Assembly: GCA_046328015.1 (NCBI GenBank)
Contig: JAXLXH010000001.1
Coordinates: 907,305-971,304 of the forward strand
Length of the DNA stretch: 64,000 bases
Reading direction: 5' to 3'
Origin: Candidatus Sericytochromatia bacterium
GTDB lineage: Bacteria; Cyanobacteriota; Sericytochromatia; UBA7694; JACMQJ01
Shown here: positions 2,441-61,557 of the stretch, in pieces
Position numbering within the stretch: position 1 is the first letter of the stretch
Layout of the letters: each line of letters starts with the position of its first letter
Notes under the pieces: model-generated
Seen by the model: the letters and a program-made list of their open reading frames with translations, nothing else
What the model was told of the DNA's origin: nothing
Databases searched by the model: none
Translations under genes and position numbers: made by a program

Positions 2441-2603
2441 ATAATAATTTTAAGTATAGATAATTATAAACTTGTATTCTAAAAATATGGGAATAGCTAT
2501 ATAACTCCGAGGTATTCTATAATAAGAATAAAAAAATTGCCTAGTTTCTTTTATAAGAATCTAAGCAATTTAATTTATATACTTAAAATTTAATTATTAG
2601 AAA

Positions 2604-13631: not shown

Positions 13632-14600
13632 TTGAGTGATAAAAAATATTGGGTTATAAAAATGACAGATTATCATGATTTAGGCTATAGAAAACTATTT
13701 AAAAGTAAAACCATTTTTACACAATTTTTAAAAACCTTTGTAAAAGAAGAATTTGTAGAAAAAATAGATTTTAATGAGTTAGAATACATAAATAAAACAT
13801 ATATATCAAAAAATTATCAAAAAACAGAAAGTGATGTAATTTATAAAACAAAAATACAAGATAAGGAAGCATATTTATATGTTTTATTAGAATTTCAATC
13901 TACAGTTGATAATTTTATGGCTTTAAGATGTTTGAACTATATTACCAATTTTTATATAGATTTATTACTTGAAAATAAGTATTTAGAATATTTACCTCCT
14001 ATTTTTCCTATTGTTTTATATAATGGAGATAAAAAATGGACAGCCCCCGAAAATATATCAAGTTTGATAAAAAACAATAAATTATTAGGAAAATATGGAA
14101 TAAATTTTAGATATTTAAAAATAGCAGAAAATGAGTATAAAAAAGAAGATTTAATAAAAATAAAAAATATAGTATCAAATCTTTTTATGGCAGAAGCACA
14201 TTTTGATATAGATGAAATGATAGAAGAAATCTCTAATTTGGCTGATTCTGAAACCGATAAAGAAGCATTAGATTTTTTTATTAATTGGTTTAAAAACAAG
14301 GCTATTTATGGTAAAATAGACTATGAGTATGAGAGAATTGAAGAGGCTTATTTGAGTAAAATAGAGGTAAAACAAGTGCTTTTAGAAGTTGTAAAAGAAA
14401 AACATGAAAAAATAAAGCTTGAAGGTAAACTTGAAGGAGAATCTATTGGCATTCAAAAAGGTAAACTTGAAGGCAAAATTGAAGGTATAGAATTAACAGC
14501 TATAAATATGATAAAAAAAGGCTGTGATAATTCTTTTATAAATGAAATAACTGGCTTAAGTTTTGAAAAAATTGAAGAACTAAGAAAAAATATCTCTTAA
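13632..14600 (+). CDS. Rpn-family recombination-promoting nuclease / putative transposase (YhgA-like, PDDEXK_7)
   Basis: DVIYKTKIQDKEAYLYVLLEFQSTVDNFMALRCLNYITNFY matches the YhgA/Rpn conserved core. The C-terminus has internal GKLEG repeats. Confidence 0.8.
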   Translation: MSDKKYWVIKMTDYHDLGYRKLFKSKTIFTQFLKTFVKEEFVEKIDFNELEYINKTYISKNYQKTESDVIYKTKIQDKEAYLYVLLEFQSTVDNFMALRCLNYITNFYIDLLLENKYLEYLPPIFPIVLYNGDKKWTAPENISSLIKNNKLLGKYGINFRYLKIAENEYKKEDLIKIKNIVSNLFMAEAHFDIDEMIEEISNLADSETDKEALDFFINWFKNKAIYGKIDYEYERIEEAYLSKIEVKQVLLEVVKEKHEKIKLEGKLEGESIGIQKGKLEGKIEGIELTAINMIKKGCDNSFINEITGLSFEKIEELRKNIS

Positions 14601-22603: not shown

Positions 22604-24019
22604 ATGCTTTTGAATGAAAAAATGATTGAACTAAGTAAAATAAATAAAGTTCACTTTGTTGGAATAGGTGGTATAGGTATGAGTGCCTTAGCCTTTGCTC
22701 TTTTATCAAAAGGTAAAAAAGTTTCTGGTACCGATAAAAAAGCCTCTAACATTACTGATAAATTAACTGAAATGGGAGCTAAAGTAAATATAGAACATAG
22801 CTCGGATAATATAACTAGCGATATAGATATAATAGTAGTATCAACTGCAATAGACAAAACTAATCCAGAAATAATAAAAGCAAAAGAATTAAACATACCT
22901 ATATACCACAGAGCAGATTTATTAAATGCATTTCTTAGAAGCCATGAAAGTATTGCTGTAACAGGAACTCATGGTAAAACCTCTACTTCAGCTATGATGT
23001 CTCAAGTATTATATGAAGCAAACTTACAACCAACTGCTTTAGTTGGAGGACAAATAATAAGTTTTGGAACCAATTCTTTAACAGGAAATAGTAATTATTT
23101 AGTAGCAGAAGTAGATGAAAGTGATAAATCAATTCATAAATTATCAGCTTCTTATGCCATAATTACAAATCTTGAAACAGACCACTTAGATCATTATAAA
23201 GATTTAAATGATATTATAAGTACCATGAAAAGTTTTGTTGATAATATTCCTCAAGATGGAAAAATAATTATTTGTAAAGATTCTGATGGCAACAGAGAAT
23301 TAATGAAACTTTTATCTGATAGAAATGTTATTACTTATGGAGAAGAAGAAGAATCTTCTGATTATGTAATAACCGATATAGAACAAACTGACTCTAGTTC
23401 AAGATTTAAAATATTAGAAAAAGGCAAATTATTAGGTGAGTTTTTTATGCCTGTTGCAGGTAAACACTATATTTTAAATGCTTTATCAGTTATTATTTGC
23501 TCTAGATTAATGGGTGTTTCTGTAGAAAATATTAAAAAAGGACTTGAAAATTATAAAGGTGTAAAAAGAAGATTTGAAAAAATAGCAGAAAAAGATGGTT
23601 CTATAATAATAGATGATTATGCTCATCATCCAACTGAAATAAAAGCAACTTTATCTACTGCTAATTTATTTAAAAGACCAGTAACAGTAGCTTTTCAACC
23701 TCACAGATTTAGTAGAACACAAGGTTTAATGGATGATTTTTCTAAGTCTTTTGAATACGCAGATAGAGTAATTATTACTGATATTTATGGTGCTGGAGAA
23801 AAACAAGAAGACTTTCCAGAAACTACTTCTAAAAAATTATCTGAAATGATTAAAATTCATTATCCAAATAAAGAAGTTCATTATATTGCATCCTTAGAAG
23901 AAATTTCTGATTTTATTACCAAAAATAAATTAGAAAAAGAAATTATTATTACAATGGGTGCAGGAACCATCACAAATTTATCAAAAATGATTTTTAATGA
24001 ACCCCAAAAAGTAGCTTAA
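22604..24019 (+). CDS. murC: UDP-N-acetylmuramate--L-alanine ligase
   Basis: HFVGIGGIGMSALA, GTHGKTSTS, Mur ligase middle and C-terminal domains. GAGGA RBS. Confidence 0.92.
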   Translation: MLLNEKMIELSKINKVHFVGIGGIGMSALAFALLSKGKKVSGTDKKASNITDKLTEMGAKVNIEHSSDNITSDIDIIVVSTAIDKTNPEIIKAKELNIPIYHRADLLNAFLRSHESIAVTGTHGKTSTSAMMSQVLYEANLQPTALVGGQIISFGTNSLTGNSNYLVAEVDESDKSIHKLSASYAIITNLETDHLDHYKDLNDIISTMKSFVDNIPQDGKIIICKDSDGNRELMKLLSDRNVITYGEEEESSDYVITDIEQTDSSSRFKILEKGKLLGEFFMPVAGKHYILNALSVIICSRLMGVSVENIKKGLENYKGVKRRFEKIAEKDGSIIIDDYAHHPTEIKATLSTANLFKRPVTVAFQPHRFSRTQGLMDDFSKSFEYADRVIITDIYGAGEKQEDFPETTSKKLSEMIKIHYPNKEVHYIASLEEISDFITKNKLEKEIIITMGAGTITNLSKMIFNEPQKVA

Positions 24020-24045
24020 TTAGATAATAGTTTTTTTATTATAAA

Positions 24046-24078
24046 TATTAGCCACTTAAGGCTAATATTTTTATTTTT
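24046..24078 (+). terminator. Hairpin TTAGCC-ACTTA-AGGCTAA followed by TATTTTTATTTTT
   Basis: Read from the sequence, 27 nt after the murC stop. Confidence 0.45.
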
Positions 24079-24209
24079 ACTATTATAATTTTTTGGGGTT
24101 TTATTTTTATTAATCTGAAAATCTTTAATTTTCTTTAATGTTTAGCAAGGTTATTAATAAAAAAAACTATACTATATTTAGAGTATATTAAGTTTAGGTA
24201 ATTTAAAAT

Positions 24210-24830
24210 ATGGATGCTATAGGCAATTCAACTGCAATGACAACTATTGCAAATCAAAGTTTAAGCAACCTTTCAAAAAATCAAGTCGTTGAAGAATTAG
24301 AAGCAAATTCTGTATCTTCTATTTTATCTAAAAATGATGCCGTATCTTCTTCTGTTAATTCTGGTTCTGTTCCTGCTAATAGAGTTAGTATAGGAACTAG
24401 ATTAGCCAATACATCTTCTGCTATTGCAACAGGTACTGTTAATGTAACTAGAGAAGCAGGAAGGGTAATAACACAAGAAGTTTTACCTACTCCAGAACCA
24501 CTAAGTGTAAGATTAATGAGAAATAAATTTCTAAGTGCTATTTTAGTGGGTGGATTTGTAAATGGTGTAACAACTTTATTAAAAGTAAATGATGGAAAAT
24601 ATACTGTAGACCAAGCAAAACATGAAGTAGTAAAAAATACTGCTATGGGGGCTGTTTCAGGGCTTTCTTTTGCAAGTGGAATGGGTTTAACCGCATCAGT
24701 TTTGGGAAAAGCTGTAGGTGGAGTACCTTTATCTTTAGCTGCCTTAACTGTAGGAACAGTTGCATCTTATTTCTCAACTGAATTATTAAAAAATCAGGTA
24801 AATTATTTCAAAGATAATCCTGTTGCTTAA
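24210..24830 (+). CDS. Hypothetical Ser/Thr/Ala/Gly-rich protein with C-terminal glycine-zipper-like hydrophobic segment
   Basis: 206 aa. GAVSGLSFASGMGLTASVLGKAVGGVPLSLAALTVGTVASYF. Codon usage visibly less AT-biased than neighbouring genes. Confidence 0.45.
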   Translation: MDAIGNSTAMTTIANQSLSNLSKNQVVEELEANSVSSILSKNDAVSSSVNSGSVPANRVSIGTRLANTSSAIATGTVNVTREAGRVITQEVLPTPEPLSVRLMRNKFLSAILVGGFVNGVTTLLKVNDGKYTVDQAKHEVVKNTAMGAVSGLSFASGMGLTASVLGKAVGGVPLSLAALTVGTVASYFSTELLKNQVNYFKDNPVA

Positions 24831-26056
24831 TTAAAACGACTAATTACTATACTAGAATTATGACCTCCGAAACCAAAACTATTAGATAAAATATTATTTA
24901 GTTTGGTTTCTTTAAAAGTATTAAAAACATAATTTAAATTACAATTAGGATCTTCAGTTTCAAAATTAATTGTAGGTGGGATAATATTATTTTCTAAAGA
25001 TAATATACAAGAAATAGCTTCTATAGCTCCAGAAGCCCCTAACATATGTCCTGTCATAGATTTTAAAGCACTAACAAAAGGTTCTTTTTGATTATAAAAT
25101 ACTTCTCTTATTGCCATAGATTCAGTTTTATCATTTGCTTCTGTAGATGTACCATGTGCATTTATATAATCTATATCAGAAAAATTTAAACCAGAATCTT
25201 TTACAGCACCAATCATACATTTTTTTATACTTTCCCCAGAAGCTTCTGGTAAAGTAATATGAAAAGCATCGCAATTAGAATAATAACCTTTTATCTCAGC
25301 CAAAATATTAGCTTTTCTTTTTTGAGCACTTTCCAAAGATTCTAAAATTAAAATACCTGAACCTTCTCCCATAACAAAACCATCTCTTTTAGCATCAAAT
25401 GGTCGACTAGCTTTTTTAGGTTCTTCATTATGTCTAGACATAGCTCTTAAAGAACAAAAACCAGCAAAACTTAGTGGTGTAATAGCAGATTCAGTTCCTC
25501 CACAAATAGCAGATTCTAAAGTACCAGCTTGAATTAATTTAAAAGCCTGACCAATAGCATCAGTTCCAGAAGCACAAGCCGTAACAGGACAATAATTAGT
25601 TCCTTTGGCATTATATTTTATTGCTACATAAGCTCCGGCTATATTAGGAATAATCATAGGTATAGTTAAAGGGCTAACTCTTGAGTTTCCTTTTTCTAAT
25701 AAAATACTATGCTGATTTTCTGTAACTCCAAAACCACCTATACCACAACCAATAATAACGCCTGTTTTTTCTGGGTTTTCTGATATATTGAGGCCAGATT
25801 GTAATAAAGCTTCATTAGTAGCTGCTAAAGCAAAATGACAAAATCGATCCATTCTTCTTACATCTTTTTTTTCAATATAATCATCAGGATTAAAATTTTT
25901 TACTTCAGCTGCTATTTTAGTAGAAAATTCATTTGCATCAAAAAGAGTTACATAATCAACTCCACTTTGACCCAAAAGCATATTTTCATAAAAAGTTTTT
26001 ATGTTATTTCCTATAGGAGTTACACTTCCAACTCCTGTTATTACTACTCTTTTCAT
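24827..26056 (-). CDS. fabF: 3-oxoacyl-[ACP] synthase II
   Basis: 409 aa. Active-site Cys in ...TACASGTDAIG..., HGTST and GHMLGASG motifs. Confidence 0.92.
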   Translation of the reverse strand: MKRVVITGVGSVTPIGNNIKTFYENMLLGQSGVDYVTLFDANEFSTKIAAEVKNFNPDDYIEKKDVRRMDRFCHFALAATNEALLQSGLNISENPEKTGVIIGCGIGGFGVTENQHSILLEKGNSRVSPLTIPMIIPNIAGAYVAIKYNAKGTNYCPVTACASGTDAIGQAFKLIQAGTLESAICGGTESAITPLSFAGFCSLRAMSRHNEEPKKASRPFDAKRDGFVMGEGSGILILESLESAQKRKANILAEIKGYYSNCDAFHITLPEASGESIKKCMIGAVKDSGLNFSDIDYINAHGTSTEANDKTESMAIREVFYNQKEPFVSALKSMTGHMLGASGAIEAISCILSLENNIIPPTINFETEDPNCNLNYVFNTFKETKLNNILSNSFGFGGHNSSIVISRFN

Positions 26057-26116
26057 TTTTTTATAAAAAAAGTTTATTTAAAAATTAACTTTTAAATAAA
26101 CTTCTAAACTAAAATT

Positions 26117-27085
26117 TTATTTTTTTAAACCAATTTCTACTAATCTTTTATTAAGATATTCACCAGCTGTCATATCAGAGAATTTTTTAGGATGTTTTTC
26201 ATCTATACAAGAATCTAAACAAGTTAAATCCATATCAGCTACTGGATGTAAAAAGAATGGAATAGAATATCTAGAAGTACCTAAAAGTTCTTTTGGTGGA
26301 TTTATTACTCTATGAGTAGTAGAAACTAATTTACCATTAGTTAATCTTTGAAGCATATCACCAACATTAATTACTAGTTCATCATCTTTAGCATTTAAAG
26401 ATAACCATTCACCATCTAATGTTTTTACTTGTAATCCATCTGCACTAGCACCTATTAATAAAGTAATTAAATTAATATCTTCATGTGCTTCAGCTCTAAC
26501 AGCACCTTCTGGTAAATCAACATCTATAAGAGGAAAATAATGTAACATTCTTAAAATACTATTTCCTTTTTGAACTTTATCGTCGAAGTAAAACTCATCT
26601 AATTTTAAAAATAAGGCAATAGCTCTTAATAATTCAATAGCAATATCTTCTAATTTTTTATAAACTTCTAAGGCTATTTTATTAAATTCAGGCAATTCTT
26701 TTACATAAACATTTTGATAAAAACCTTCTGGAATAACTCCGTCTTCAAATTCTTGACCCCATTGCCAAAACTCTTTTAGATCAGCTACTTTAGAACCCTT
26801 AGCAATTTCTTTACCTTTTGAAGTATATCCTCTTTGACCAAAAATACCCTCTATTTCATATTTTTTCTTAAATTCTTCTGGCTGAGAAAAAAAGTTTTTT
26901 ACTTGTTCATATAAATAATCTTTAGTTTGCGGTAATAATCCATGATTTTTTATTACAACAAAACCTATTTCGTTATAAGCTTTACCAATATTTTTACAAA
27001 ATTGTTTTTTTAGTTCTGGATTTCCACTTATTAGATCAGTATAATCTAGAGTTGGGATCTCCACTTTTGTTTTAGTTGCATTCAT
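26117..27085 (-). CDS. 2-oxoglutarate/Fe(II)-dependent oxygenase family protein (isopenicillin N synthase-like)
   Basis: HxD...H iron triad (AHEDINLITLL ... TTHRV). Probably co-transcribed with fabF, gap about 60 nt. Confidence 0.7.
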   Translation of the reverse strand: MNATKTKVEIPTLDYTDLISGNPELKKQFCKNIGKAYNEIGFVVIKNHGLLPQTKDYLYEQVKNFFSQPEEFKKKYEIEGIFGQRGYTSKGKEIAKGSKVADLKEFWQWGQEFEDGVIPEGFYQNVYVKELPEFNKIALEVYKKLEDIAIELLRAIALFLKLDEFYFDDKVQKGNSILRMLHYFPLIDVDLPEGAVRAEAHEDINLITLLIGASADGLQVKTLDGEWLSLNAKDDELVINVGDMLQRLTNGKLVSTTHRVINPPKELLGTSRYSIPFFLHPVADMDLTCLDSCIDEKHPKKFSDMTAGEYLNKRLVEIGLKK

Positions 27086-27342
27086 TTTATTATTCTCTTT
27101 TTAAATTATATGTAATAAATAGGAAAAAATATTCTTTAAAGTTTATTTTTCATTTTTAAATCTAGTATAAAATAATAAAAACAACCTAAAAAGCTTTTTT
27201 AATTTATAGTTATTTTTTTTAATTTTTATTGATATTTATTTTTGATATGAATCAAATAATTTTTATGATCAGAATCATGATTAAAAAATATTTTTATTTA
27301 TAATATGATACATATAAAAAAATACAAAAAGGTATATGGTTT

Positions 27343-28638
27343 ATGTTAAAAACTAAAAAACATTCAAAAAAAATAAACTTAATTCTATCAACTTTACTTT
27401 TTTCTTTTTATGGACAAAATTCTTTTGCAGAAGAAGCTAAAAGTGACCATGATTTTAAATTTAGTGGAAACATCGTAGTAAAAAGTGAATTAGATGCTAG
27501 GGATTTTAAAAATAGTACAAACCCTTTGTTTTATACTTCATTAAGAACAACTTTGGGAGTAGAAAAAGATTTTTTTGATAAATTTAAAGTTTTTCTTCAA
27601 ATAAGAGATTCAAGATTAATGGGTGAAGAAGCTACTTTATTTACAAATATGAAAAATTTAGACCTTCATCAAGGATATGTCTTAGTAAAAAATATTTTTG
27701 ATTCACCTTTATCTTTTCAAGCGGGTAGATTTGAAAATAGTTATGCTACTCAAAGATTTATTGGTGCGGGTGATTGGCATTATATAGGAAGATCTTTTGA
27801 TGGTTTTAAATTAAATTATAAAAATAAAGAAGGTTTTGATTTTAATTTAGATATATTTGATTTTATTAGTAATAACTTCACTCCTTATATTTCAAATGCT
27901 ACCCCTACATCTTATAAAGATATTCCTTCTCCTAGTAATGATATTTTAGGTTTTTGGGCAAAAAGTAAAGTTAGTGAAGCTGTAGAATTAAATTTATTTA
28001 CTATAAAACAAAACAATAAAAAGCAAAGCAAACAAGGTTTTAATGATTTAGATTTAACTACTTTGGGTGGTACTTATATTGGTAATTATGGAGATCTTTC
28101 TTCTATATTAGAAGGTGCTTATCAATTAGGTAATTATTCAGATTTATCTACTAATGCTTATTTAGCTTCGGCTCAAGTTTTTTATAATTTTAGTGGGTTA
28201 AAAGTAGGATTAGGTGCTGATATTTTATCTGGAAATAATCCGGATAGCACAAAAACAAAAAATGTTTTTAGTGCTAGTTTAGGAACCAATCATTCTTTTT
28301 ATGGATATATGGATTATTTTACTGATATACCTACTAATACAGGAAATTTGGGTTTAAATGATTATTATTTGACAACATCTTGGAGTAATAAAAATTTTCC
28401 TTTATCAGCAACTTTAAATATTCATCATTTTATGTCTAATCAAAGTGCAAAAACAGGTGAAAATACTTTTGGTCAAGAAGCAGATTTAGTATTAAAATAT
28501 GCTATATTAGAAAAAACTAATTTTATTTTAGGTGTTAGTATGTTTATACCTTCTAATTTAATGAAAAAAGAAGGGTTTTTTAAAGATGTAAGTGATAACT
28601 CTTATTGGAGTTATGCTTCTATAGTTTCTAATTTTTAA
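27343..28638 (+). CDS. Outer-membrane beta-barrel protein (porin / alginate-export-like)
   Basis: Signal peptide, alternating amphipathic beta-strand pattern, C-terminal ...SNF (terminal Phe). Confidence 0.55.
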   Translation: MLKTKKHSKKINLILSTLLFSFYGQNSFAEEAKSDHDFKFSGNIVVKSELDARDFKNSTNPLFYTSLRTTLGVEKDFFDKFKVFLQIRDSRLMGEEATLFTNMKNLDLHQGYVLVKNIFDSPLSFQAGRFENSYATQRFIGAGDWHYIGRSFDGFKLNYKNKEGFDFNLDIFDFISNNFTPYISNATPTSYKDIPSPSNDILGFWAKSKVSEAVELNLFTIKQNNKKQSKQGFNDLDLTTLGGTYIGNYGDLSSILEGAYQLGNYSDLSTNAYLASAQVFYNFSGLKVGLGADILSGNNPDSTKTKNVFSASLGTNHSFYGYMDYFTDIPTNTGNLGLNDYYLTTSWSNKNFPLSATLNIHHFMSNQSAKTGENTFGQEADLVLKYAILEKTNFILGVSMFIPSNLMKKEGFFKDVSDNSYWSYASIVSNF

Positions 28639-28649
28639 AGGTTTATTAT

Positions 28650-29957
28650 ATGATTACCGTTGATGAAGCAGAAAAAATAATCTTAGAAGAAACTAAAGAA
28701 TTATTTGATATAGAAAATATTAATTTAGAAAAAAGTTTTAGTAGAGTTCTAAGAGAAAATATTTATTCTGATAGAGAACAACCACCTTTTGATCGTGTAG
28801 CTATGGATGGCATAGCTATAAAATATGAAAGTTTAAAAAATAATTCTTTTATAATACAAGGAATACAAAGTGCTGGGATGCCTCCATTAGAACTAACTAG
28901 TTTAGATAATTGTATAGAAGTAATGACTGGGGCTGTTTTACCTTTAGGTTGCGATTGTGTTATTAAAGTAGAAGATTTAGAAATAAAAAATAATATTGCT
29001 TATTTAAAAGATGATATAACTATAGATTTTTTTCAAAATATACATAAAAAAGGAATAGATCATCCTAAAAATGCTGAAGTAATAAAAGAAAAAACTAAAA
29101 TTCTACCTACACATATTGCAATTTTAGCATCTGTAGGTAAACATATAATAAAAGTTACTAAAAACCCATCTATAGCTATAATTTCTACAGGTGATGAATT
29201 GGTCAATATAGAGCAAGATGTTTTACCACATCAAATAAGAATGTCTAATGCTTATGCAATACAAAGTGCTTTAAACAGTTTGGGTTATAATGAGACAAAA
29301 ATATTTCATTTAAAAGATGACAAAGTTGAATTGTTAGATAAAATAGCTAATATATTACTAAAATTTGATACAGTTATCTTAAGTGGTGGAGTTTCTATGG
29401 GAAAATTTGATTTTATTCCTCAGGTTATGAAAGAACTTGAAGTTGAAACTCTTTTTCATAAAATATCGCAAAAACCTGGAAAACCCTTTTGGTTAGGAAA
29501 AACTAAAGATAAAAAATTAGTTTTTGGTTTACCTGGAAACCCTGTATCTGTTTTAGTTTGCTTTTATAGATATATAATTCCTTTTTTAATAAAAAAAAGT
29601 GGCTTAGATTTAGAAAATAAAAAAGTTATTTTGAAAGAAACTTATAATAAATTTAAGACCTCTTGTGGGGTATCAACCCCACAAGAGGAAGGGTGTGGGG
29701 GCATTGCCCCCATACCCCCTAAAACCTCAGAGCATAGCTCCGAGGTATTTTCTAATAATAAAATAAATCTTACTTCATTTTTACCAGTTAATATTAGTTA
29801 TGATAATAATGGCTTTTTGGTAGCTAATATTGTTCCAAACAATGGTTCTGGTGATTATTATTCCATTTCCAAAAGTGATGGTTTTGTAGAGATAGAAAAA
29901 GATAAAAAAGTATTTGAAAAAGGCAGTTTAGTTAAATTTTTTTCTTGGAGTTTTTAA
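28650..29957 (+). CDS. moeA: Molybdopterin molybdotransferase MoeA, carrying an in-frame insertion of about 30 aa encoded by a GC-rich palindromic element
   Basis: MoeA N- and C-domains, GGVSMGKFDF. Insert ...TSCGVSTPQEEGCGGIAPIPPKTSEHSSEVF... is encoded at 29657-29748. Confidence 0.88.
   Translation: MITVDEAEKIILEETKELFDIENINLEKSFSRVLRENIYSDREQPPFDRVAMDGIAIKYESLKNNSFIIQGIQSAGMPPLELTSLDNCIEVMTGAVLPLGCDCVIKVEDLEIKNNIAYLKDDITIDFFQNIHKKGIDHPKNAEVIKEKTKILPTHIAILASVGKHIIKVTKNPSIAIISTGDELVNIEQDVLPHQIRMSNAYAIQSALNSLGYNETKIFHLKDDKVELLDKIANILLKFDTVILSGGVSMGKFDFIPQVMKELEVETLFHKISQKPGKPFWLGKTKDKKLVFGLPGNPVSVLVCFYRYIIPFLIKKSGLDLENKKVILKETYNKFKTSCGVSTPQEEGCGGIAPIPPKTSEHSSEVFSNNKINLTSFLPVNISYDNNGFLVANIVPNNGSGDYYSISKSDGFVEIEKDKKVFEKGSLVKFFSWSF
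29657..29748. repeat. GC-rich nested-palindrome element, family 2, copy 1, in frame inside moeA
   Basis: CCTCTTGTGGGGT-ATCAA-CCCCACAAGAGG, TGGGGGCATTGCCCCCA, ACCTCAGAGC-ATA-GCTCCGAGGT. Confidence 0.8.
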
Positions 29958-29960
29958 AAT

Positions 29961-30986
29961 ATGCTACTTCAACAGGAAAATGAATTTCAATTAGTCTATA
30001 ATGCGAATAATTCTGAAAAAAAAAATAATAAAGATGAAAAAGCAAATAAAAATAAACTAATAGATTCTTATAAACGTCATATTCATAAACTAAGAGTTCA
30101 ATTAACAGATGCTTGTAATTTTAGGTGTTTTTATTGTATGCCTGAAAATATAAAATTTAAACCTCATTCAGAATTATTAACTCCAGAAGAAATATATAAT
30201 ATTTGTTCTATTTTAACAGAAAATTTTGGAGTAGATGAATTAAGATTAACTGGTGGAGAACCAACAATAAGACCAGAATTTGAAGAAATTGTAAAAAAAT
30301 TAGATACTTTAAAAGTAAAAAAATACGGTTTAACTACCAATGGCTTTATTTTAGATAAAAAACTAGATTTTTTAAAAAATACTAATTGTAAAAATATAAA
30401 TATAAGTTTGGATAGTTTAGAAAGAAATAAATTTAACCAAATAACTAAAAGTACTTATTTTGATGATACATTTAAAGCTATTATAAAAGCAAAAGAATTA
30501 GGTTTTAATGTAAAAGTAAATACTGTTTTATTAAAAGGCATTAATGACGAAGAAATTTTTAATTTTATAGATTTTTCTGCTAAATATAATATTGAAGTTA
30601 GATTTTTAGAATTAATGAAAATTGGAGAAGCTATTAATAACCCTCTTTTTATTTCTGCAAAAGATCTTATAGATATAGTTAGAACTAAAGAAAAGCTTAC
30701 TTCTTTAAAAGTAGCTCAAGATTCAACTTCTTTTAATTATAAAACTTCTTCTAATGCAAAAATAGGTTTTATTGCTTCAGAATCAATGCCTTTTTGTAAC
30801 TCTTGTTCTAGAATAAGATTAAGTGCTACAGGTAAATTAAGAGCTTGCTTGATGTCAGAAGAAGGTATAAATCTTAAAGGAAAAACCAAAGAAGAATTTT
30901 CAGCAATTTTACAAGAAGTAATAGCTATGAAACCTAATTATAGAATACCTGAAATAAATCAAACAATGAATCAAATTGGTGGGTAA
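29961..30986 (+). CDS. moaA: GTP 3',8-cyclase (radical SAM)
   Basis: CNFRCFYCMP radical-SAM cluster. C-terminal CNSCSRIR second cluster. Confidence 0.92.
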   Translation: MLLQQENEFQLVYNANNSEKKNNKDEKANKNKLIDSYKRHIHKLRVQLTDACNFRCFYCMPENIKFKPHSELLTPEEIYNICSILTENFGVDELRLTGGEPTIRPEFEEIVKKLDTLKVKKYGLTTNGFILDKKLDFLKNTNCKNINISLDSLERNKFNQITKSTYFDDTFKAIIKAKELGFNVKVNTVLLKGINDEEIFNFIDFSAKYNIEVRFLELMKIGEAINNPLFISAKDLIDIVRTKEKLTSLKVAQDSTSFNYKTSSNAKIGFIASESMPFCNSCSRIRLSATGKLRACLMSEEGINLKGKTKEEFSAILQEVIAMKPNYRIPEINQTMNQIGG

Positions 30987-31463
30987 ATGCTATCTCATAT
31001 AGATAAAAATAATCAACCTTCTATGGTTGATGTAAGTAAAAAAATTGCTACTGTAAGAACAGCACATGCAAGAGCAATTATAAAATTAAATAAAGAAATT
31101 ATAGAGCTTTTTTCTGGTGAAGATATAAAAAGTAAAAAAGGGCCTGTTTTTCAAACAGCAATAATAGCAGGTATAATGGCTGCAAAAAAAACCTCAGCTT
31201 TAATTCCTTTATGTCATCCGATAGGTTTGGAAGATTGTCAGATAAAAATAGCCCTAAATGATTCAGAAGAGGCTGTTATAGATTGTATTACAAAAGTTAC
31301 TCATAAAACAGGTGTAGAAATGGAAGCTCTAACTGGTGCTAGTGTAGCAGCTTTGACTATTTATGATATGTGCAAAGCTATATCGCATGATTTAGTTATA
31401 AAAGAAATAAAATTAATTGAAAAAAAAGGTGGTAAAAGCGATTTTTATGGGGCTAAAACTTAA
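30987..31463 (+). CDS. moaC: Cyclic pyranopterin monophosphate synthase
   Basis: 158 aa. MoaC family (…LIPLCHPIGL…, …TGVEMEALT…). Confidence 0.92.
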   Translation: MLSHIDKNNQPSMVDVSKKIATVRTAHARAIIKLNKEIIELFSGEDIKSKKGPVFQTAIIAGIMAAKKTSALIPLCHPIGLEDCQIKIALNDSEEAVIDCITKVTHKTGVEMEALTGASVAALTIYDMCKAISHDLVIKEIKLIEKKGGKSDFYGAKT

Positions 31464-32529
31464 ACAAGATTATCTTTTTAATCCTTATGAAATCTTTTTT
31501 TGTGGTTTTTCTAATTCTGGTAAAACTACTTTAATAGAAAAATTAGTAAAAAAATTAGCACCTAATTATTCTATTGGTTATGCAAAACATGATGCTCATT
31601 TTTTTGAAATGGATAAAGAAGGTAAAGATTCTAATCTAATTTATAAGGCTGGGGTAAAACAGATTATTATAAATGATAAAGACCATTTTGCTCTGATAAG
31701 TAAAAATAATGATGAATTAGTTTTTAATCAAAAAAATTTTATACCTTATGATTTTGTTTTTGTAGAAGGTTATAAATATAATAATTACCCTAAAATAGTT
31801 TTAATTGACAAAGAAAAAAAGATTTTAGATGATTATAAAGAAGGAAAAATAACTAATGTTTTAGCTTTTGTAGGAGAAAAAGAGTTTAATAGTAATATAC
31901 ATTTTTTTAATAGGAATGATATAGATAATATAAGTAGTTTTATTATAAATTATTTTGAAAGTTTAAAACCTGAATTATACGGTTTAATTTTGGTTGGTGG
32001 CAAAAGTAGTAGAATGAAAAAAGATAAAGCTACTTTAAAATATCATGGAAAAACGCAATTAGAATACAATTATGAATTATTGACTAAATATTGTGATAAA
32101 GTTTTTATTTCTTCTAGAAAAGAACAAGATTTTCAAATAGAAGTACCTTATATTTATGATTCTTTTTTAGAAATTGGACCTATGGGAGGAATTTTATCAG
32201 CTTTAAAAACAAATCCTAAAACAGCTTTTTTAGTTATAGCTTGTGATATGCCTTATGTTAATGAAAAAACTATCGAAAAGTTAATTAGTAATAGAGATTT
32301 TTTTAAATATGCCACTTCTTATATAAATAATGAAAATAATTTCCCAGAACCTTTGTGTGCTATTTATGAACCTAAAATAAAAAGTAGATTATTAGATTTT
32401 TTAAGTTTTGATATTACTTGTCCTAGAAAAGTTTTAATTAACTCTTCTATAAAAGGAATTTTTCCTGAAAATAATTTAGAAATGAGTAATATAAATACTA
32501 TAGAAGAATTTAATAATTGTATAAACTAG
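31447..32529 (+). CDS. mobA: Bifunctional MobB-MobA: molybdopterin-guanine dinucleotide biosynthesis adapter fused to molybdenum cofactor guanylyltransferase
   Basis: N-terminal Walker A GFSNSGKTTL and AKHDAHFFEMDKEGKDS (MobB). C-terminal LVGGKSSRMKKDKATL, GPMGGILS, ACDMPYV (MobA). Overlaps the moaC 3' end. The track's alternative start is 31417. Confidence 0.8.
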   Translation: MGLKLKQDYLFNPYEIFFCGFSNSGKTTLIEKLVKKLAPNYSIGYAKHDAHFFEMDKEGKDSNLIYKAGVKQIIINDKDHFALISKNNDELVFNQKNFIPYDFVFVEGYKYNNYPKIVLIDKEKKILDDYKEGKITNVLAFVGEKEFNSNIHFFNRNDIDNISSFIINYFESLKPELYGLILVGGKSSRMKKDKATLKYHGKTQLEYNYELLTKYCDKVFISSRKEQDFQIEVPYIYDSFLEIGPMGGILSALKTNPKTAFLVIACDMPYVNEKTIEKLISNRDFFKYATSYINNENNFPEPLCAIYEPKIKSRLLDFLSFDITCPRKVLINSSIKGIFPENNLEMSNINTIEEFNNCIN

Positions 32530-32537
32530 ATAAGAAT

Positions 32538-32665
32538 AGTGAAAAGTGAAAAGTTAGAAGTTAGAAGAATAGGACTGTGAAGCATGATACTTCGACAGGC
32601 TCAGTAGGCAATCGTGATACTTCGACAAGCTCAGTAGACAAGCGTGAAAAGTGAAAAGTTAGTTT
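32538..32665. repeat. REP-like composite repeat, family 1 (GTGAAAAGTGAAAAGTTAGAAGTTAGAAG + two ATACTTCGACA[GA]GCTCAGTAG[GA]CAA units)
   Basis: Most complete copy in the window. Confidence 0.65.
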
Positions 32666-32836: not shown

Positions 32837-34045
32837 TCATTTAGTAAAATAACTTATTTTATTAATACTAGCTATTATATCTTCATAATCTAACCCAAAA
32901 TCAATTAAACATGCTATTTCTGTAACTCCTATCTTAGCCAATTTAGCTATTTTATCTTCCAAAATTTCTTTATCTCCAAAAAAAGTTCTATTTTCAAAAT
33001 ATCTTTCAAAAGCAAACTCTAATAACTCTTCTTTATCATTTTTAGTCAAATTTTCAGGATTTATTGTTAAATCTGAAGCATTTCCAAATTTACCTAATAA
33101 ATCTAATGTACTTTTTAAATACTTTTTAAAGGGTTCTTTTACTTTATTTTTTACTTGTTCTTTAGATTCTCCAAAATAACTATGCATAAAAACAGCTATT
33201 TTTTTATTTTTTCTATGACCGTTTTTTTCTAAAGCTTGAAAATAAAGTTCTAATTTTTTCTCTAATTCTTCTATATCTTGATCTAATAAACAAGTCATCA
33301 AATTATAACCTTTTTCTCCTACTTTTATATAAGTTTCTGGATTCCCTATAGCAGTTACCCAAATTTCTAAATTTTTATTATAGGGTTTAGGATGAATTTC
33401 TATTTCTATTTCTTTATTAGCCCCATTTATTCTTTTTAATTTTTCTCCTTCCCATAGCTTTTTTACTTCTTCTATTCTATCAAACATAATTTCTTTTCTA
33501 TTTTGATAATTTTCTGGTTCAAAAACAAAATCATTTATATGCCAACCCGTAGCAAAAGATAACTCTACTCTACCTTTAGATAAGTTATCTATAATAGACC
33601 AATTTTCAGCGGTTCTTATTACGTCATTTATAGGTAAAACAACACTACCAGCTCTTAAACTAATATTTTTAGTAATACTACTTAAAGCAGCAGAAATAAT
33701 CGCAGGATTTGAATAAATACCGCCTAATTTATGAAAATGTCTTTCTGGAGTCCAAATAGCTGAAAAGTTATTTTCATCTGCAATTTTTGCTACTTCTAAT
33801 AATAATTTATATTTATCATTTTCATCATCTACATTATCAGAAAAAAGAAAAATACTAAAATCCATTTTTATATTATTTTTTTTAGCTAAAAAATTAATTA
33901 TTGTTTTTTTATTTTCGACTAAAAAATTTTTTATTTCTGGAGTTATAAAACCTTTGGGAGCTTGTATTTTTAGTTCTTTATCTACTAAAGAGATTATTAT
34001 ATCTTTTTCTTTTAAGTCATCTAGTATTTTTTCTATTTTTGACAT
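32837..34045 (-). CDS. Luciferase-like (flavin-dependent) monooxygenase with N-terminal TubC-N-type docking domain
   Basis: Residues ~60-402 match the LLM TIM barrel. The first ~55 aa (DIIISLVDKELKIQAPKGFITPEIKNFLVENKKTIINFL) match the TubC_N docking-domain pattern (..L...G..L...AP.G.LTPEL...L..HK..IL..L). Confidence 0.75.
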   Translation of the reverse strand: MSKIEKILDDLKEKDIIISLVDKELKIQAPKGFITPEIKNFLVENKKTIINFLAKKNNIKMDFSIFLFSDNVDDENDKYKLLLEVAKIADENNFSAIWTPERHFHKLGGIYSNPAIISAALSSITKNISLRAGSVVLPINDVIRTAENWSIIDNLSKGRVELSFATGWHINDFVFEPENYQNRKEIMFDRIEEVKKLWEGEKLKRINGANKEIEIEIHPKPYNKNLEIWVTAIGNPETYIKVGEKGYNLMTCLLDQDIEELEKKLELYFQALEKNGHRKNKKIAVFMHSYFGESKEQVKNKVKEPFKKYLKSTLDLLGKFGNASDLTINPENLTKNDKEELLEFAFERYFENRTFFGDKEILEDKIAKLAKIGVTEIACLIDFGLDYEDIIASINKISYFTK

Positions 34046-41174: not shown

Positions 41175-42296
41175 TTATTTTTTACTAGGTATTATTTGTT
41201 CTATTTTTATATTAAAATTTTTAGAAATTCTATCTAATAATTCTTTTTGGTCTTTAGTAATAATAGAAATAGCCATACCTTTTTGTTCTTGTCTTCCAGT
41301 TCTTCCAACTCTATGTAAATAAGATTTTGCATCTCTATTTAGATCTAAATTAAAAACATGGCTTACATTTTTTATATCCAAACCTCTAGCAGCAATATCT
41401 GTAGCAAATAATAATTGAATAGTACCTTTTTTAAAATCTTCAATTATTTTTTTACGCTCTTCTTTTTGATTTGTTCCCAAAAGAGAACCTGCTTTTAAGC
41501 CATGATATCCAGTAAATTCAACAAGCTCTTTTATATCATCACCTTTTTGTATAAAAACTAAGGCTCTTTCTGGATTAAAAAATTTAACTAATTTTCTCAA
41601 TGTTTCTACTTTATTTTTATACTCAACAACATAATAATAATGTTCTATATTATCTGGAATGGTATTTTCACTTTCAGTTCTTATAATATTTATTTCTTTT
41701 AAATACTCTTTCATTTCTGATATATCTCTATCGGAAATAGTTGCAGAAACTAAAATAGTTTGTTTTTCTTTTGAAGTTATATTAAGTACTTTTTTTACTG
41801 TAGATACATTAGTTTTATCTAACATCCTATCAGCTTCATCTATAACAAGATTTTTTATATTAGAAGCATTTATTTTTTTCTTTTCTATTAATTCTAATAT
41901 TCTACCTGCCGAACCTATAATAATATGAGGTTTTTCTTTTAATTTATCAATTTGTCTTTTTATATTAACTTCTCCAATAATAAGTGCATAAGAAATAGGT
42001 AAATTAGAGTTTTTTGCTAATAACTCTACCTGTGTTTTTATTTGAGAAGCTAATTCATGAGTAGGAGCAAGTATGATAGTTTGTGTTTTGTCATTTATAT
42101 TTATGTTTTGAAAAATAGGTAATAAATAAGCAAAAGTTTTACCAGAACCTGTTTCAGATTGAAAAATAAGATCTTTTTTTAATAATAATTCAGGAATTAC
42201 TTTACCTTGTATTTCTGTTGGATTAGTAATACTTAACTTTTTTAATCCTTCTTCTAATTGACTATTTAAACCTAAATTTGTAAATGTATTGTCCAT
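41175..42296 (-). CDS. DEAD-box ATP-dependent RNA helicase
   Basis: Q-motif region, SETGSGKT (motif I), DEAD (VIDEADRMLD), SAT, HRVGRTGR. The start is placed at MDNTFTNLGL because the longer track ORF (to 42383) runs into the GC-rich palindromic element. Confidence 0.85.
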   Translation of the reverse strand: MDNTFTNLGLNSQLEEGLKKLSITNPTEIQGKVIPELLLKKDLIFQSETGSGKTFAYLLPIFQNININDKTQTIILAPTHELASQIKTQVELLAKNSNLPISYALIIGEVNIKRQIDKLKEKPHIIIGSAGRILELIEKKKINASNIKNLVIDEADRMLDKTNVSTVKKVLNITSKEKQTILVSATISDRDISEMKEYLKEINIIRTESENTIPDNIEHYYYVVEYKNKVETLRKLVKFFNPERALVFIQKGDDIKELVEFTGYHGLKAGSLLGTNQKEERKKIIEDFKKGTIQLLFATDIAARGLDIKNVSHVFNLDLNRDAKSYLHRVGRTGRQEQKGMAISIITKDQKELLDRISKNFNIKIEQIIPSKK

Positions 42297-42351
42297 AAAT
42301 AATTTTAACTCTAAAAATGCTAAACCCTTTATAAATTTTATTCTTATTAGA

Positions 42352-42438
42352 GAATACCTCAGAGCTCTGCTCTGGTGTTTCAAGGGAGAGCCCCCGATCC
42401 CTTCCTCCTACGGGGTTGCTACCCCGTAGGAGGTCTTA
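42352..42438. repeat. GC-rich nested-palindrome element, family 2, copy 2, inverted orientation, intergenic
   Basis: GAATACCTCAGAGCTCTGCTCTGG…CCTCCTACGGGG-TTGCTA-CCCCGTAGGAGG. Confidence 0.75.
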
Positions 42439-42511
42439 AATTCATTTTAGGGTTATTTTATTATAATATAATTTATATCTTTTATCTGATTAAATTATTG
42501 ATTCTACAAAT

Positions 42512-42552: not shown

Positions 42553-44031
42553 CTAAAATCCAATTTTTGCCATTTGTAAAAATGGAGCTGGAGCTAAGAA
42601 TAAAACTAATAAACCTAATAAGCTTATAATAGCAGCCATAGCTAAAGCAGCATTTGGAGCTTCCCAAGTAATAGATTCTTCTGGTTCTCTTAGATACATA
42701 GCTTTCATAACTTTTACATAATAGTATAAAGATACTACACTGTTTAATGCACCGATAAAAGCTAACCAAGCATAGCCTGAATTGAAAGCAGATACAAATA
42801 AATATAATTTACCAGTAAAACCGCCAAATGGAGGTAAACCTGCTAAAGAAACTAAACAACAAGAAAATACGAATGCAATAAAAGGTGATTTTTTAGCAAC
42901 TCCTGCAAAAGAATCTATATCTGTAGAACCAGTATGTTTTGAAAAGTACATTATTGCTCCAAAAGCACCTATATTCATAAATATATAGGTTGTTAAGTAA
43001 AATAAAACACTGGTAAAATCATCATAGTTTCCTTTCATTAAAGGGATAATACCAATAAGTATATAACCTGCATGAGCAATACTTGAAAAAGCAAACATTC
43101 TTTTTACATTTTTTTGAATAATAGCTAAAAAGTTTCCTGCACACATAGTAATAATAGAAACAATTACAACTAAGGTTAATAATTGATTTGCAAGCTCATT
43201 AGTGAATATTTGTATAAATCTAGCAAAAGCTGCAAAACCAGCAATTTTTGATGTTATTGATAAAAACGCAGTAACAGGAGTTGGAGCCCCTTCATAAACA
43301 TCTGGAGCCCACATATGAAATGGAGCAGCAGCTATTTTATAAGCTAAACCAGAAAAACTCATTACAGTTGCTATTACTAAAATAACATTTAAAGGTTGAG
43401 AGTATTTAGACAAACCTGCAGCTACAGTAGGAAAATCTATTGCTCCAGTCAAACCAAACATAATAGAAAAACCATAAAGAGTTAAAGCAGATGATAAACC
43501 ACCAACAACAAAATATTTTAAAGCAGATTCAGAAGATTTTGGATTATCTTTATTCATACAAGTAAGTACATAAGAGCTGATACTTAAGAGTTCAACTCCT
43601 AAGAAAAAGGTAATCATTTCATTTGCAGATGATAAAAACATACCACCTAAAGTTGCCATACAAATTAGTGAATAAAATTCACCAGAGTTTCTTATTTTTT
43701 CACTAACATATCTAAAAGAAATTAAAACAGTTAAGATTGATGATAAAACTATTATCATTTTGAAATAAACTGCAAAATCATCTAATAAAAAAGATTGATG
43801 AAAAGTAGCTTTATCTGAAGCAAAAAAGCCTTCTGTTATTCCAAAACCTACAGATTTGAAACCAACTAAAGAACCAAAAGATAAACATAAACCTACTAAA
43901 GCGGCTAAACCAATATTACGCCCTCTTTTTTCTTTTATTTTATCAACTGGTTTGAAAAACCACTCACCGAATACTACAACGCACGCCGTGAGTATTAATA
44001 TTAATTCTGGTATAAAAACAGCGAAATTCAA
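42553..44031 (-). CDS. nuoN: NADH-quinone oxidoreductase subunit N
   Basis: 492 aa, 14 TM, antiporter-like subunit, last gene of the operon. Confidence 0.9.
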   Translation of the reverse strand: MNFAVFIPELILILTACVVVFGEWFFKPVDKIKEKRGRNIGLAALVGLCLSFGSLVGFKSVGFGITEGFFASDKATFHQSFLLDDFAVYFKMIIVLSSILTVLISFRYVSEKIRNSGEFYSLICMATLGGMFLSSANEMITFFLGVELLSISSYVLTCMNKDNPKSSESALKYFVVGGLSSALTLYGFSIMFGLTGAIDFPTVAAGLSKYSQPLNVILVIATVMSFSGLAYKIAAAPFHMWAPDVYEGAPTPVTAFLSITSKIAGFAAFARFIQIFTNELANQLLTLVVIVSIITMCAGNFLAIIQKNVKRMFAFSSIAHAGYILIGIIPLMKGNYDDFTSVLFYLTTYIFMNIGAFGAIMYFSKHTGSTDIDSFAGVAKKSPFIAFVFSCCLVSLAGLPPFGGFTGKLYLFVSAFNSGYAWLAFIGALNSVVSLYYYVKVMKAMYLREPEESITWEAPNAALAMAAIISLLGLLVLFLAPAPFLQMAKIGF

Positions 44032-55520: not shown

Positions 55521-56378
55521 ATGATAAATAAGGGTTCTTTAAAAGATTTTAGATTATTTGATCTTTTAACAATTTTAGATCAAAGTAAAAAAAGTGGTAT
55601 TTTAACTTTAAAACTTAGAGAGTTTATTGGAAATATTTATGTAACAGATGGTTCTGTTATAGAAGTAAAAACTTCTCATCTTCATGGAGAAGATGCTTTT
55701 TATGAGCTTATGTTTTATGAGTCTGGAGAATTTGAGTTTTTAGAAGGAGAAAAATTTGAAGGTTCAAAAAACATAGAAAAATCTACACATGAGCTATTAG
55801 AAGAAGGTAATTTTAGAGTTACATTAACTAATTCACTTATTAAGAATTCTATTAATACAGATTTAAAATCTAAAATAATAATTGTTGATGAAAAAGAAGA
55901 TGATTTTATTACTATGATAAAATCAGGATTTGATACAATTATCTCTTTGGCAAGAGAGTCTAAAGTTTCTCCTAATGAATTTTCTCAGCATTTAGAATTT
56001 TTAATTAAAAATAATAATATTGAAATTGAAAAAAATATACAAAATGAAATATGGAGTTCTTTTCAAAAGCTTGTAAATACTACCTATAAAGAGTTTACGA
56101 GTATTAGTGGAATAAAAATGAATAAAGAACTTGATAAAAAAATACAAGAACTTATAGAAATTAACTCTTTGAATTTAGAGTTTAAAGATGGTAAAATTGA
56201 TACAAAGGATCTTTTTAAATTAACTTCAAACGAACAGATTAATATATATAAACTGTTTTTGAAGGAACTAAAAGCTTATGTAGTAAAGATATATGGCAAA
56301 GATTTTATAATAAATATTTTTGCAAGTGTGTCCGGAGTTGATTCTAAAACAATCGACTTATTAAATATTGAGGTATAA
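55521..56378 (+). CDS. DUF4388/PATAN-type domain protein
   Basis: FRLFDLLTILDQSKKSGILTLK…GNIYVTDGSVIEV…GEDAFYELMFYESGEFEF is the DUF4388 signature. ATG overlaps the preceding stop (TAGATG). Confidence 0.6.
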   Translation: MINKGSLKDFRLFDLLTILDQSKKSGILTLKLREFIGNIYVTDGSVIEVKTSHLHGEDAFYELMFYESGEFEFLEGEKFEGSKNIEKSTHELLEEGNFRVTLTNSLIKNSINTDLKSKIIIVDEKEDDFITMIKSGFDTIISLARESKVSPNEFSQHLEFLIKNNNIEIEKNIQNEIWSSFQKLVNTTYKEFTSISGIKMNKELDKKIQELIEINSLNLEFKDGKIDTKDLFKLTSNEQINIYKLFLKELKAYVVKIYGKDFIINIFASVSGVDSKTIDLLNIEV

Positions 56379-56405
56379 ATTAGGTTTAATAAAAGAGGTA
56401 TTTAA

Positions 56406-56825: not shown

Positions 56826-56868
56826 TTACTAGTTTTTGTATAATATTAGGAAAGTCGAGAAGAATTAA

Positions 56869-57447: not shown

Positions 57448-57499
57448 AATCAAGATTATATAATTTTAAAAAATATTATTTTTATATTAACTCACACAA

Positions 57500-57545
57500 C
57501 CCCTGTCTAAATTATTAGAGAGGGGCATGTTTTCTATCTAATAAG
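57500..57545 (+). terminator. Imperfect hairpin CCCCTGTCT…AGAGAGGGG followed by a T-run, after mglA
   Basis: One mismatch in a 9-bp stem. Confidence 0.35.
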
Positions 57546-57611
57546 TCTTATAATACAATTTTGTATTTAATTTTTTCCTTTTGTAAAATTTCTGTTGAAA
57601 AAATAAAATTA

Positions 57612-57706
57612 AGACCTCTTTCGGGGTATTGAACCCCGAAGGAGGCTGGAGACGGGGCTGTGCCCCCGAATCCCCCCATTACCCCGAAGCAGAGCTTCGA
57701 GGAATT
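57612..57706. repeat. GC-rich nested-palindrome element, family 2, copy 3, intergenic
   Basis: CCTCTTTCGGGGT-ATTGAA-CCCCGAAGGAGG…GGGGCTGTGCCCCC…CAGAGCTTCGAGGAATTC. Confidence 0.75.
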
Positions 57707-57730
57707 CTATAAGATTAAAAAACTAACAAC

Positions 57731-61520: not shown

Positions 61521-61557
61521 AAAGTTTTTTATTTTATTTTAGAAAGGAAAATTGTTA

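Follow-up and report, generated by a model that had tools for sequence, protein, structure and literature searches.

A stretch of 64,000 nt from the metagenome-assembled genome (MAG) of a Candidatus Sericytochromatia bacterium (GenBank assembly GCA_046328015.1, contig JAXLXH010000001.1; hereafter the window) contains a GC-rich palindromic repeat that lies between genes and also, in frame, inside moeA, the gene for molybdopterin molybdotransferase. The peptide encoded by the repeat recurs in at least 17 other, unrelated proteins. We regard it as very probable that the element is selfish, non-autonomous palindromic DNA that was recently active and is tolerated in coding sequence only under three filters, those of frame, of length divisible by three and of loop position. 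The family is new but its kind is known; invasion of genes by in-frame palindromic repeats is itself established.

Insertion of the element in moeA

A sequence-only reading of the window had placed an element of about 90 nt at 29657-29748, adding some 30 residues to an otherwise canonical MoeA. Inspection of the open reading frame (ORF) confirmed the quoted sequence and the lack of a stop codon. The host gene and its element copy are as follows.

28650..29957, + strand: moeA (molybdopterin molybdotransferase), 435 aa; ORF hosting an in-frame copy of the element
29651..29758, + strand: copy 1, 108 nt absent from the closest orthologue (filled/empty alignment with contig L001; nhmmer E = 5.9e-34)

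Window MoeA was 100% identical to NCBI protein P0001 of the MAG "Candidatus Sericytochromatia bacterium" (locus tag U0457). The next-best homologue, P0002 (399 aa), is encoded on L001, a syntenic 8.7-kb Logan contig from sample SRR1027651. L001 aligned to window positions 23737-32567 at 94.6% nucleotide identity, with a single gap of exactly 108 nt in moeA, which raises the estimated gain to 36 aa. None of the 81 other aligned MoeA homologues (P0002 and 80 others, seven of the others displayed in full) carried the 36-residue segment. Because every outgroup lacks it, the segment is an insertion, and a deletion in the relative was ruled out. The moeA copy therefore arrived after the split from a relative of 94.6% nucleotide identity. 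The empty and filled sites read:

Empty site (L001): GAAACTTA-TAATAA-TAAAAT
Filled site (window): GAAACTTA-TAATAA-[ATTTAAGACC...GGTATTTTC]-TAATAA-TAAAAT

The net gain of 108 nt thus comprises a 102-nt core enclosed at its junctions by a 6-nt direct repeat, TAATAA. The boundary of copy 1 slides by these 6 nt, with TAATAA at 29645-29650 and again at 29753-29758; set against the family consensus, the unit covers approximately 29646-29763.

The description of the protein as otherwise canonical was upheld. Pfam domains MoeA_N, MoCF_biosynth and MoeA_C were present, and all 35 invariant columns in an alignment of 82 homologues were kept, none being lost through the insert. An AlphaFold model built on 82 sequences had a mean predicted local distance difference test (pLDDT) score of 90.8 and matched the crystal structures of GephE (gephyrin E), Cnx1E and MoeA at a template-modelling (TM) score of ~0.8. 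The sole stretch with pLDDT below 50 was residues 340-370, the insert, which was bracketed by confident strands at 325-333 and 375-384 in the C-terminal MoeA_C part. The model thus predicts that the 36 added residues (example peptide from the moeA insert, TSCGVSTPQEEGCGGIAPIPPK) form a disordered loop in an otherwise confident fold, in line with the expectation that the extra segment would map to a loop.

Copies elsewhere in the window

The window averages ~26% GC, and 60-nt intervals with at least 55% GC occurred at exactly three sites, all of them copies of the element (62-68% GC), so that the reported contrast with an AT-rich genome stands. An nhmmer profile built from eight copies recovered all three window copies with E values of 1e-28 to 6e-34. 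The two sister copies proposed near 42352-42438 (inverted) and 57612-57706 were borne out by nhmmer and alignment, and both were intergenic. Alignment of the three full copies extended from end to end, with 80% column identity, and was not confined to short GC runs.

42339..42446, - strand: copy 2, intergenic, without ~10 nt of hairpin 2 (nhmmer E = 1.2e-31)
57602..57720, + strand: copy 3, intergenic (nhmmer E = 1.1e-28)
2503..2535, + strand: solo 3'-end fragment CTCCGAGGTATTCTATAATAAGAATAAAAA, intergenic (nhmmer model positions 91-118, E = 0.0016)

Copy 2 is co-oriented with the two genes that border it, a NuoN-like gene (42553-44031, -), whose stop codon lies on one side, and a DEAD-box helicase gene, whose start lies on the other. 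The helicase ORF, when listed from a TTG start (41175-42383, -), overlaps copy 2; an in-frame ATG at ~42296 is the probable start from the sequence, and with that start copy 2 is intergenic. Copy 3 lies between the convergent genes for an MglA-like GTPase (56869-57447, +) and a psuG-like protein (57865-58773, -), ~155 nt downstream of the former. The solo fragment identifies GAATAAAA as part of the element tail.

A short-read Logan contig from sample SRR26348420 (L033) was 100% identical to window positions 55600-57683 and stopped inside copy 3. This provides independent confirmation of the sequence and indicates that the repeat tends to fragment short-read assemblies.

In-frame copies in unrelated proteins

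When the six frames of the three copies were joined into one protein query, only one frame gave matches, to MoeA and eight other proteins. Their common segment was NEFKTSYGVSTPQEEGxGGxAPVPPETPEQSSEVFSNKNK. A peptide profile search over 1.84 billion cluster representatives, together with a word-indexed search, added further hosts as well as tiny ORFs consisting of the element only. The motif NEFKTSYGVSTPQEEG..GG.APVPPETPEQSSEVFSNKNK was carried by at least 18 unrelated host proteins including MoeA, a lower bound since the profile search misses any host for which the 50%-identity cluster representative is without the insert. The peptide consensus had a mean column identity of 87%. These hosts support the proposal that the element inserts in frame in the manner of Rickettsia palindromic elements (RPEs).

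P0001: MoeA
P0121: erythromycin-esterase family
P0122: pyridoxal phosphate (PLP)-dependent enzyme
P0124: GT2 glycosyltransferase
P0127: GT4 glycosyltransferase
P0126: TPR/BTAD regulator
P0128: HAMP histidine kinase
P0134: DUF6493 protein
P0136: O-antigen ligase
P0149/P0141: YncE-family protein
P0150: Vps62-related protein
P0123, P0125, P0133, P0135, P0137, P0146, P0147: hypothetical proteins

The hosts were of mixed type, including cytoplasmic enzymes, polytopic membrane proteins and proteins with signal peptides. By Pfam, the insert lay within the PALP domain of P0122, within the erythromycin-esterase domain of P0121 and directly N-terminal of the HATPase_c domain of P0128. At the insert, P0122 had 55 residues compared to 11 in D-cysteine desulfhydrase 7ysk, and P0121 had 83 compared to 22 in 2rad. 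Three other profile-search matches, P0139, P0144 and P0145, were rejected as unrelated low-complexity repeat proteins.

All named hosts had the locus-tag prefix U0457. A 1.35-Mb contig was considered as a second genome and rejected; it shares this prefix with the 3.56-Mb contig, and the two contigs therefore belong to one MAG.

Intergenic copies are also annotated as 'hypothetical proteins' of 40-57 aa, P0129-P0132 (U0457_12635, _13360, _16570 and _04920). A further ORF, P0143 (L031 326-493), begins in an Arg-rich frame at the element's own ATG and, past an additional C, continues in another frame. All five look like spurious gene calls caused by the repeat.

Hairpin anatomy and boundaries of the element

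The palindromes, first described as nested, were found by folding to be three adjacent hairpins in tandem.

29659..29688, + strand: hairpin 1 of copy 1, CCTCTTGTGGGGT/ATCA/ACCCCACAAGAGG; perfect 13-bp stem, 4-nt loop
29691..29717, + strand: hairpin 2 of copy 1, GGGTGTGGGGGC/ATT/GCCCCCATACCC; 12-bp stem including G-U pairs, 3-nt loop
29724..29746, + strand: hairpin 3 of copy 1, ACCTC.GAGC/ATA/GCTC.GAGGT; 5 + 4 bp with one internal mismatch, 3-nt loop

Six further DNA copies were taken from Logan/ENA contigs (L028, L029, L030, L031, L032 and L034), and an eight-copy DNA alignment gave the unit consensus AAATGAATTTAAGACCTCCTACGGGGTATCAACCCCGCAGGAGGAAGGGATCGGGGGCnnTGCCCCCnTnCCCCnnnAAACCCCAGAGCAnAGCTCTGAGGTATTCTCTAATAAGAATAAAA. 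Residues directly outside NEF...NKNK varied by host, indicating a unit of 40 codons, or 120 nt (consensus AATGAATTTAAGACCTCCTACGGGGTATCAACCCCGCAGGAGGAAGGGATCGGGGGCTCTGCCCCCGTACCCCCTGAAACCCCAGAGCAGAGCTCTGAGGTATTCTCTAATAAGAATAAA). The element proposed at ~90 nt is therefore real but longer than first thought. It has a core of 90 nt with 64% GC, flanked by AT-rich tails.

Across the eight-copy alignment, 83% of stem cells were paired, compared to 39-52% when the 3' partners were slid by 1-3 columns. Seven two-sided pair changes were observed compared to 3.4 in shuffles, a count attained by 1 of 500 shuffles. Hairpin 1 paired in 93% of cells, with three compensatory pairs, and hairpin 3 in 79%, with two pairs altered on both sides. 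Hairpin 2 was the least conserved (70% of cells paired) and was frequently deleted or decayed. Taken together, the alignment provides moderate evidence that the stems are maintained through compensatory change. The moeA copy and the P0138/P0147 copy had stem-1 and loop-3 variants in common, which suggests that the family contains sub-families.

The direct repeat at moeA raises the question of whether the element is a classical cut-and-paste MITE (miniature inverted-repeat transposable element) derived from an insertion sequence, with TAATAA as its target-site duplication. The 6-nt repeat around a 102-nt core at the single filled/empty site agrees with such an origin, as do the size and multi-copy distribution of the element (PMC10969869). 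However, the terminal inverted repeats were not significant, and the variable residues outside NEF...NKNK put the unit at 120 nt rather than 102. In other copies the hexamers at the junction-equivalent positions were a left-hand AATGAA and a right-hand TAATAA, each conserved and consistently different from the other, which suggests that they are part of the element rather than duplicated target. A target-site-duplication model with a 102-nt core suits moeA alone and mismatches the other copies. We consider a MITE origin very improbable.

Fold stability and possible roles in RNA

The predicted fold of copy 1 had a free energy of -63.3 kcal/mol and a z score of -10 relative to dinucleotide shuffles, and copies 2 and 3 each had z scores of approximately -5.3. 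Over the copies, energies ranged from -48 to -63 kcal/mol. Fold z scores over the copies ran from -5 to -10. Folds of the opposite strand were just as stable as those of the transcribed strand, as is expected of DNA palindromes. No T-tract followed the hairpins, which are therefore unlike intrinsic terminators.

The element could alternatively act at the RNA level, either as a REP/ERIC-like cis-regulator or stabiliser in 3' untranslated regions or as an intervening sequence that is excised or bypassed like the GC-rich 'byp' elements of yeast mitochondria, in which case the peptide would be missing from the protein. The very stable hairpins on the transcribed strand would suit such a role, as would the orientation of the known copies in or beside genes, all of which run with transcription, and the position of copies 2 and 3 shortly downstream of genes. 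The equal stability of the opposite strand argues against it, as does the lack of a T-tract for a terminator-like function. No Rfam family came near its threshold: Rfam 15 at gathering thresholds returned zero matches for the element, the best sub-threshold score being 22.5 bits against a gathering threshold of 80.4, and the sub-threshold matches of two copies fell in different families. Removal or bypass would moreover free gene-internal copies from the need for an open frame, a length that is a multiple of three and a single frame, but 18 of 18 hosts keep all three. A function in RNA is accordingly very unlikely as the explanation of the family.

Use of a single reading frame

Two of the six frames of the consensus were open; stops interrupted the remaining forward frame and the three reverse ones. 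Insertion in reverse orientation is thus trivially excluded from coding sequence. The frame used in all 18 hosts encodes a peptide in which Ser, Pro, Gly, Glu and Thr abound, with a net charge of -3 and a grand average of hydropathy (GRAVY) of -1.09. The other open frame (+1) encodes MNLRPPTGYQPRRRKGSGALPPYPLKPQSRALRYSLIRI, with a net charge of +9. Counts of AATAA, the motif abutting the insert, in the coding sequence of the window were 196 for codon phase 0 and 167 for phase 2. If target phase were the only factor, the probability of one frame in 18 of 18 hosts would be ~1.5e-5 (0.54 to the 18th power). The simplest explanation of the single frame would be selection against a strongly basic peptide.

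Age, decay and strain differences

Insertions of different ages were seen. The P0138/P0147 insertion was common to the MAG and the SRR1027651 relative (L028), and its hairpin 2 had decayed. The P0149/P0141 insertion was likewise common to both (L034), and its hairpin 3 had been deleted. The moeA copy occurred in one strain only and had near-perfect stems. Internal deletions that kept the frame were found in the in-frame copies of P0140, P0142/P0150, P0146 and P0149. The orthologues P0138 and P0147 differed at seven amino acids, six of which lay inside the 40-aa insert (Fisher p = 2e-5), indicating either that the peptide is less constrained than its host or that it is homogenised with other copies.

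These data bear on whether selection has spread the 40-residue peptide as a functional module, for example as a linker, a degradation tag or a site of modification, with the palindromes secondary. Such a module would agree with the use of one frame in 18 of 18 hosts, for which target phase does not account, and with the 87% identity of the peptide, but it is highly improbable given that neither location nor function is common to the hosts, that intergenic DNA contains full copies as well as a fragment, that the peptide changes faster than the host protein and is modelled as disordered, that in-frame copies (P0140, P0142, P0146, P0149) lose internal parts, and that compensatory changes in the stems reflect a constraint on nucleic acid.

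The YncE-family gene differed between strains. In SRR1027651 (L034 806-2056) it was intact, and its product of 416 aa included a truncated element read in frame. In the MAG strain (L032 2369-2974) it was split just past the element tail into ORFs of 201 aa and 190 aa. L032 and L034 diverge precisely at the 3' tail of the element, which suggests a rearrangement or a further insertion there.

Distribution of the family

Copies outside the MAG were found in SRR1027651, SRR26348420, SRR26348422, ERZ795111, ERZ27282920 and ERZ27258550. The presence of the element in six independent assemblies ruled out an assembly artefact.

The hairpin-1 pattern gave one match among 185,579 GTDB species representatives, a chance match in a GC-rich Myxococcota MAG. 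In JGI metagenomes it gave 25 matches, all of them unrelated hairpins on contigs of 51-71% GC, and in IMG/VR it gave zero. A blastn search with the element against plasmids and phages matched nothing. Literature searches on Sericytochromatia with palindromic repeats found nothing relevant, and searches on the run and assembly accessions of the copy-bearing samples found nothing; a broad search on GC-rich/AT-rich DNA was uninformative. From these searches the family looks confined to one narrow lineage, a picture that depends on the exact stem-1 pattern, which diverged relatives would escape. The family has no sequence relation to anything found in the GTDB representatives, which should include Rickettsia; 'RPE-like' therefore describes the behaviour of the element and not membership among RPEs.

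Mobilisation of the element

We favour a scenario in which selfish DNA, a non-coding repeat of ~120 nt with three GC-rich hairpins and AT-rich tails, has multiplied within one AT-rich genome lineage, with copies both between and inside genes. The repeat would be moved in trans by machinery that recognises the hairpins, and this recognition would explain why the hairpins are conserved. Insertions inside genes would survive only if their length were divisible by three, only in a tolerant loop, and only in the frame that yields an acidic, unstructured peptide rich in Ser, Pro, Gly and Glu.

The most speculative step concerns the enzyme, for which hairpin-guided transposition of single-stranded DNA by an HUH/Y1 enzyme of the IS200/IS605 or RAYT type may be proposed. 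Palindrome-associated elements derived from IS200/IS605, and REP elements mobilised with RAYT, have sub-terminal hairpins, no inverted termini and no target-site duplication, and insert beside a short motif. In the present element, AATGA or AATAA adjoins the 5' end and AATAA lies at the 3' end, and the motif would be AATGA/AATAA on the left with AATAA on the right; the resemblance is a lead only. Sub-terminal hairpins, the lack of inverted termini or a consistent duplication, and these flanks would fit an HUH/Y1 enzyme better than a cut-and-paste MITE. Going further, the family might be hairpin-guided mobile DNA of the HUH type, moulded in such a way that one of its frames encodes a harmless, disordered, acidic loop, allowing it to colonise coding sequence in a gene-dense genome; we rate this as unlikely. 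In a more radical alternative, argued by analogy with the mitochondrial 'byp' elements, the GC-rich hairpins may be skipped or excised in expression.

Several points weigh against the scenario that we favour. No mobilising gene was linked to the element, and no Y1/RAYT (HUH transposase) domain was found in 43 window ORFs; 40 of these ORFs were scanned by Pfam and three (moaA, moaC and mobB/mobA) were taken from the L001 listing, with ten ORFs of at least 100 aa unscanned. The survey of DNA copies covered the 64-kb window and the matched contigs. Persistence of the insert in the moeA mRNA and in the MoeA protein is assumed. The covariation is drawn from eight related copies, and the terminal inverted repeats were not significant (end-to-end score 16 compared to 11.2 +/- 2.3, attained by 26 of 500 shuffles). 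There is one filled/empty pair only, and its TAATAA repeat may reflect duplication of the target site, microhomology or simply the tail of the element. The gain at moeA (108 nt) also falls 12 nt below the 120-nt consensus unit. The moeA host site TAATAATAAAATA resembles the element tail TAATAAGAATAAA, and the shortfall may stem from integration at microhomology, from the use of an AATAA end inside the element or from a genuine duplication of 6 nt.

A single transposase-like gene was identified in the window; it lies at 13632-14597 (+) and matched Transposase_31 (YhgA/Rpn-like PD-(D/E)XK recombination-promoting nuclease family; E = 8e-28). No link between this gene and the element was established.

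Comparison with known systems

RPEs are the standard example of selfish DNA that makes proteins longer and does not break them; few other cases come from bacteria, and most of these are anecdotal. As described in passages of PMC2229807 and PMC10969869, RPEs (Ogata et al. 2000) are 105-146 bp long; 19 protein genes of R. conorii contain them in frame, and the product of one host gene, gmk, stays active. Going by those passages, both RPEs and the present element are short stem-loop repeats, of about 105-150 nt, found in intergenic DNA and in frame in many unrelated conserved genes, where they encode a conserved peptide. In both, the host enzymes are apparently intact, and no mobilising enzyme is known for either. 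The two differ in that an RPE is, by the same account, one long stem-loop formed from terminal inverted repeats, whereas the present element has three local hairpins. The hairpin-1 pattern had no real match in GTDB, a difference in sequence that was judged by pattern scan with no alignment to RPEs. The GC contrast of the present element is extreme (~64% in the core compared to ~26% in the genome), and its host bears a Cyanobacteriota/Melainabacteria-group label, whereas the host of RPEs is an obligate intracellular alphaproteobacterium.

The sequence-only reading had suggested that the element would be a new instance of such behaviour. It is a new family in an unrelated lineage, but it is less unprecedented than that reading implied, as in-frame fusions are documented for ERIC, the 107-bp Correia element, YPAL and Coxiella QMITE1 (PMC2229807, PMC10969869). 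The behavioural match to those elements is looser than that to RPEs, and by sequence the present element belongs to none of these families. Terminal inverted repeats are a feature of those elements, usually together with TA termini or target-site duplications, and some of them have a plausible parent insertion sequence. In the present element the inverted repeats were not significant, and a duplication is no more than possible.

The GC clusters of yeast mitochondria (e.g. GC42; PMC4478555) resemble the element in base composition, and no sequence similarity is expected. They are GC-rich, palindromic mobile repeats in an AT-rich genome, with stems conserved above loops, presence/absence polymorphism among strains and short flanking direct repeats. 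Their hairpin units merge into composites, recalling the three-hairpin build of the present element (PMC4478555). Unlike it, the clusters are organellar, ~40 nt long and mostly intergenic.

With this family a clean second system becomes available, from a lineage that is unrelated, environmental and very AT-rich. It combines at least 18 hosts, a recent insertion in MoeA, an enzyme of an essential pathway, older decayed insertions and a strict single frame. It makes testable the filters on insertion (frame, peptide chemistry and loop position), the rate of decay and the identity of the mover of a hairpin repeat without inverted termini. In practical terms, the repeat breaks short-read assemblies and creates spurious 'hypothetical protein' calls. 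If an HUH element has indeed adapted to translation, it would be a steady source of new surface loops that might later acquire function.

Other genes in the window

An ORF with 4Fe-4S motifs at 59050-60102 (-) matched LdpA_C and LdpA_Fe-S-bd (light-dependent period protein A). The LdpA family is known from cyanobacteria, and the sequence match is consistent with the Cyanobacteriota/Melainabacteria-group label despite the 26% GC of the window. Genes for a DUF4388 protein, a Roadblock/LC7 (MglB-like) protein and the Arf/Ras-like (MglA-like) GTPase lie in a row at 55521-57447 (+). A luciferase-like monooxygenase with an N-terminal TubC_N docking domain is encoded at 32837-34045 (-), adjoining the moa/mob cluster. 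TubC_N is usually found in nonribosomal peptide synthetase/polyketide synthase (NRPS/PKS) assembly lines. The last 2 kb of the window have 37% GC compared to ~26% elsewhere, and an ORF of more than 800 aa with a signal-peptide-like N-terminus, at ~61500-64000 (+), continues past the window end.

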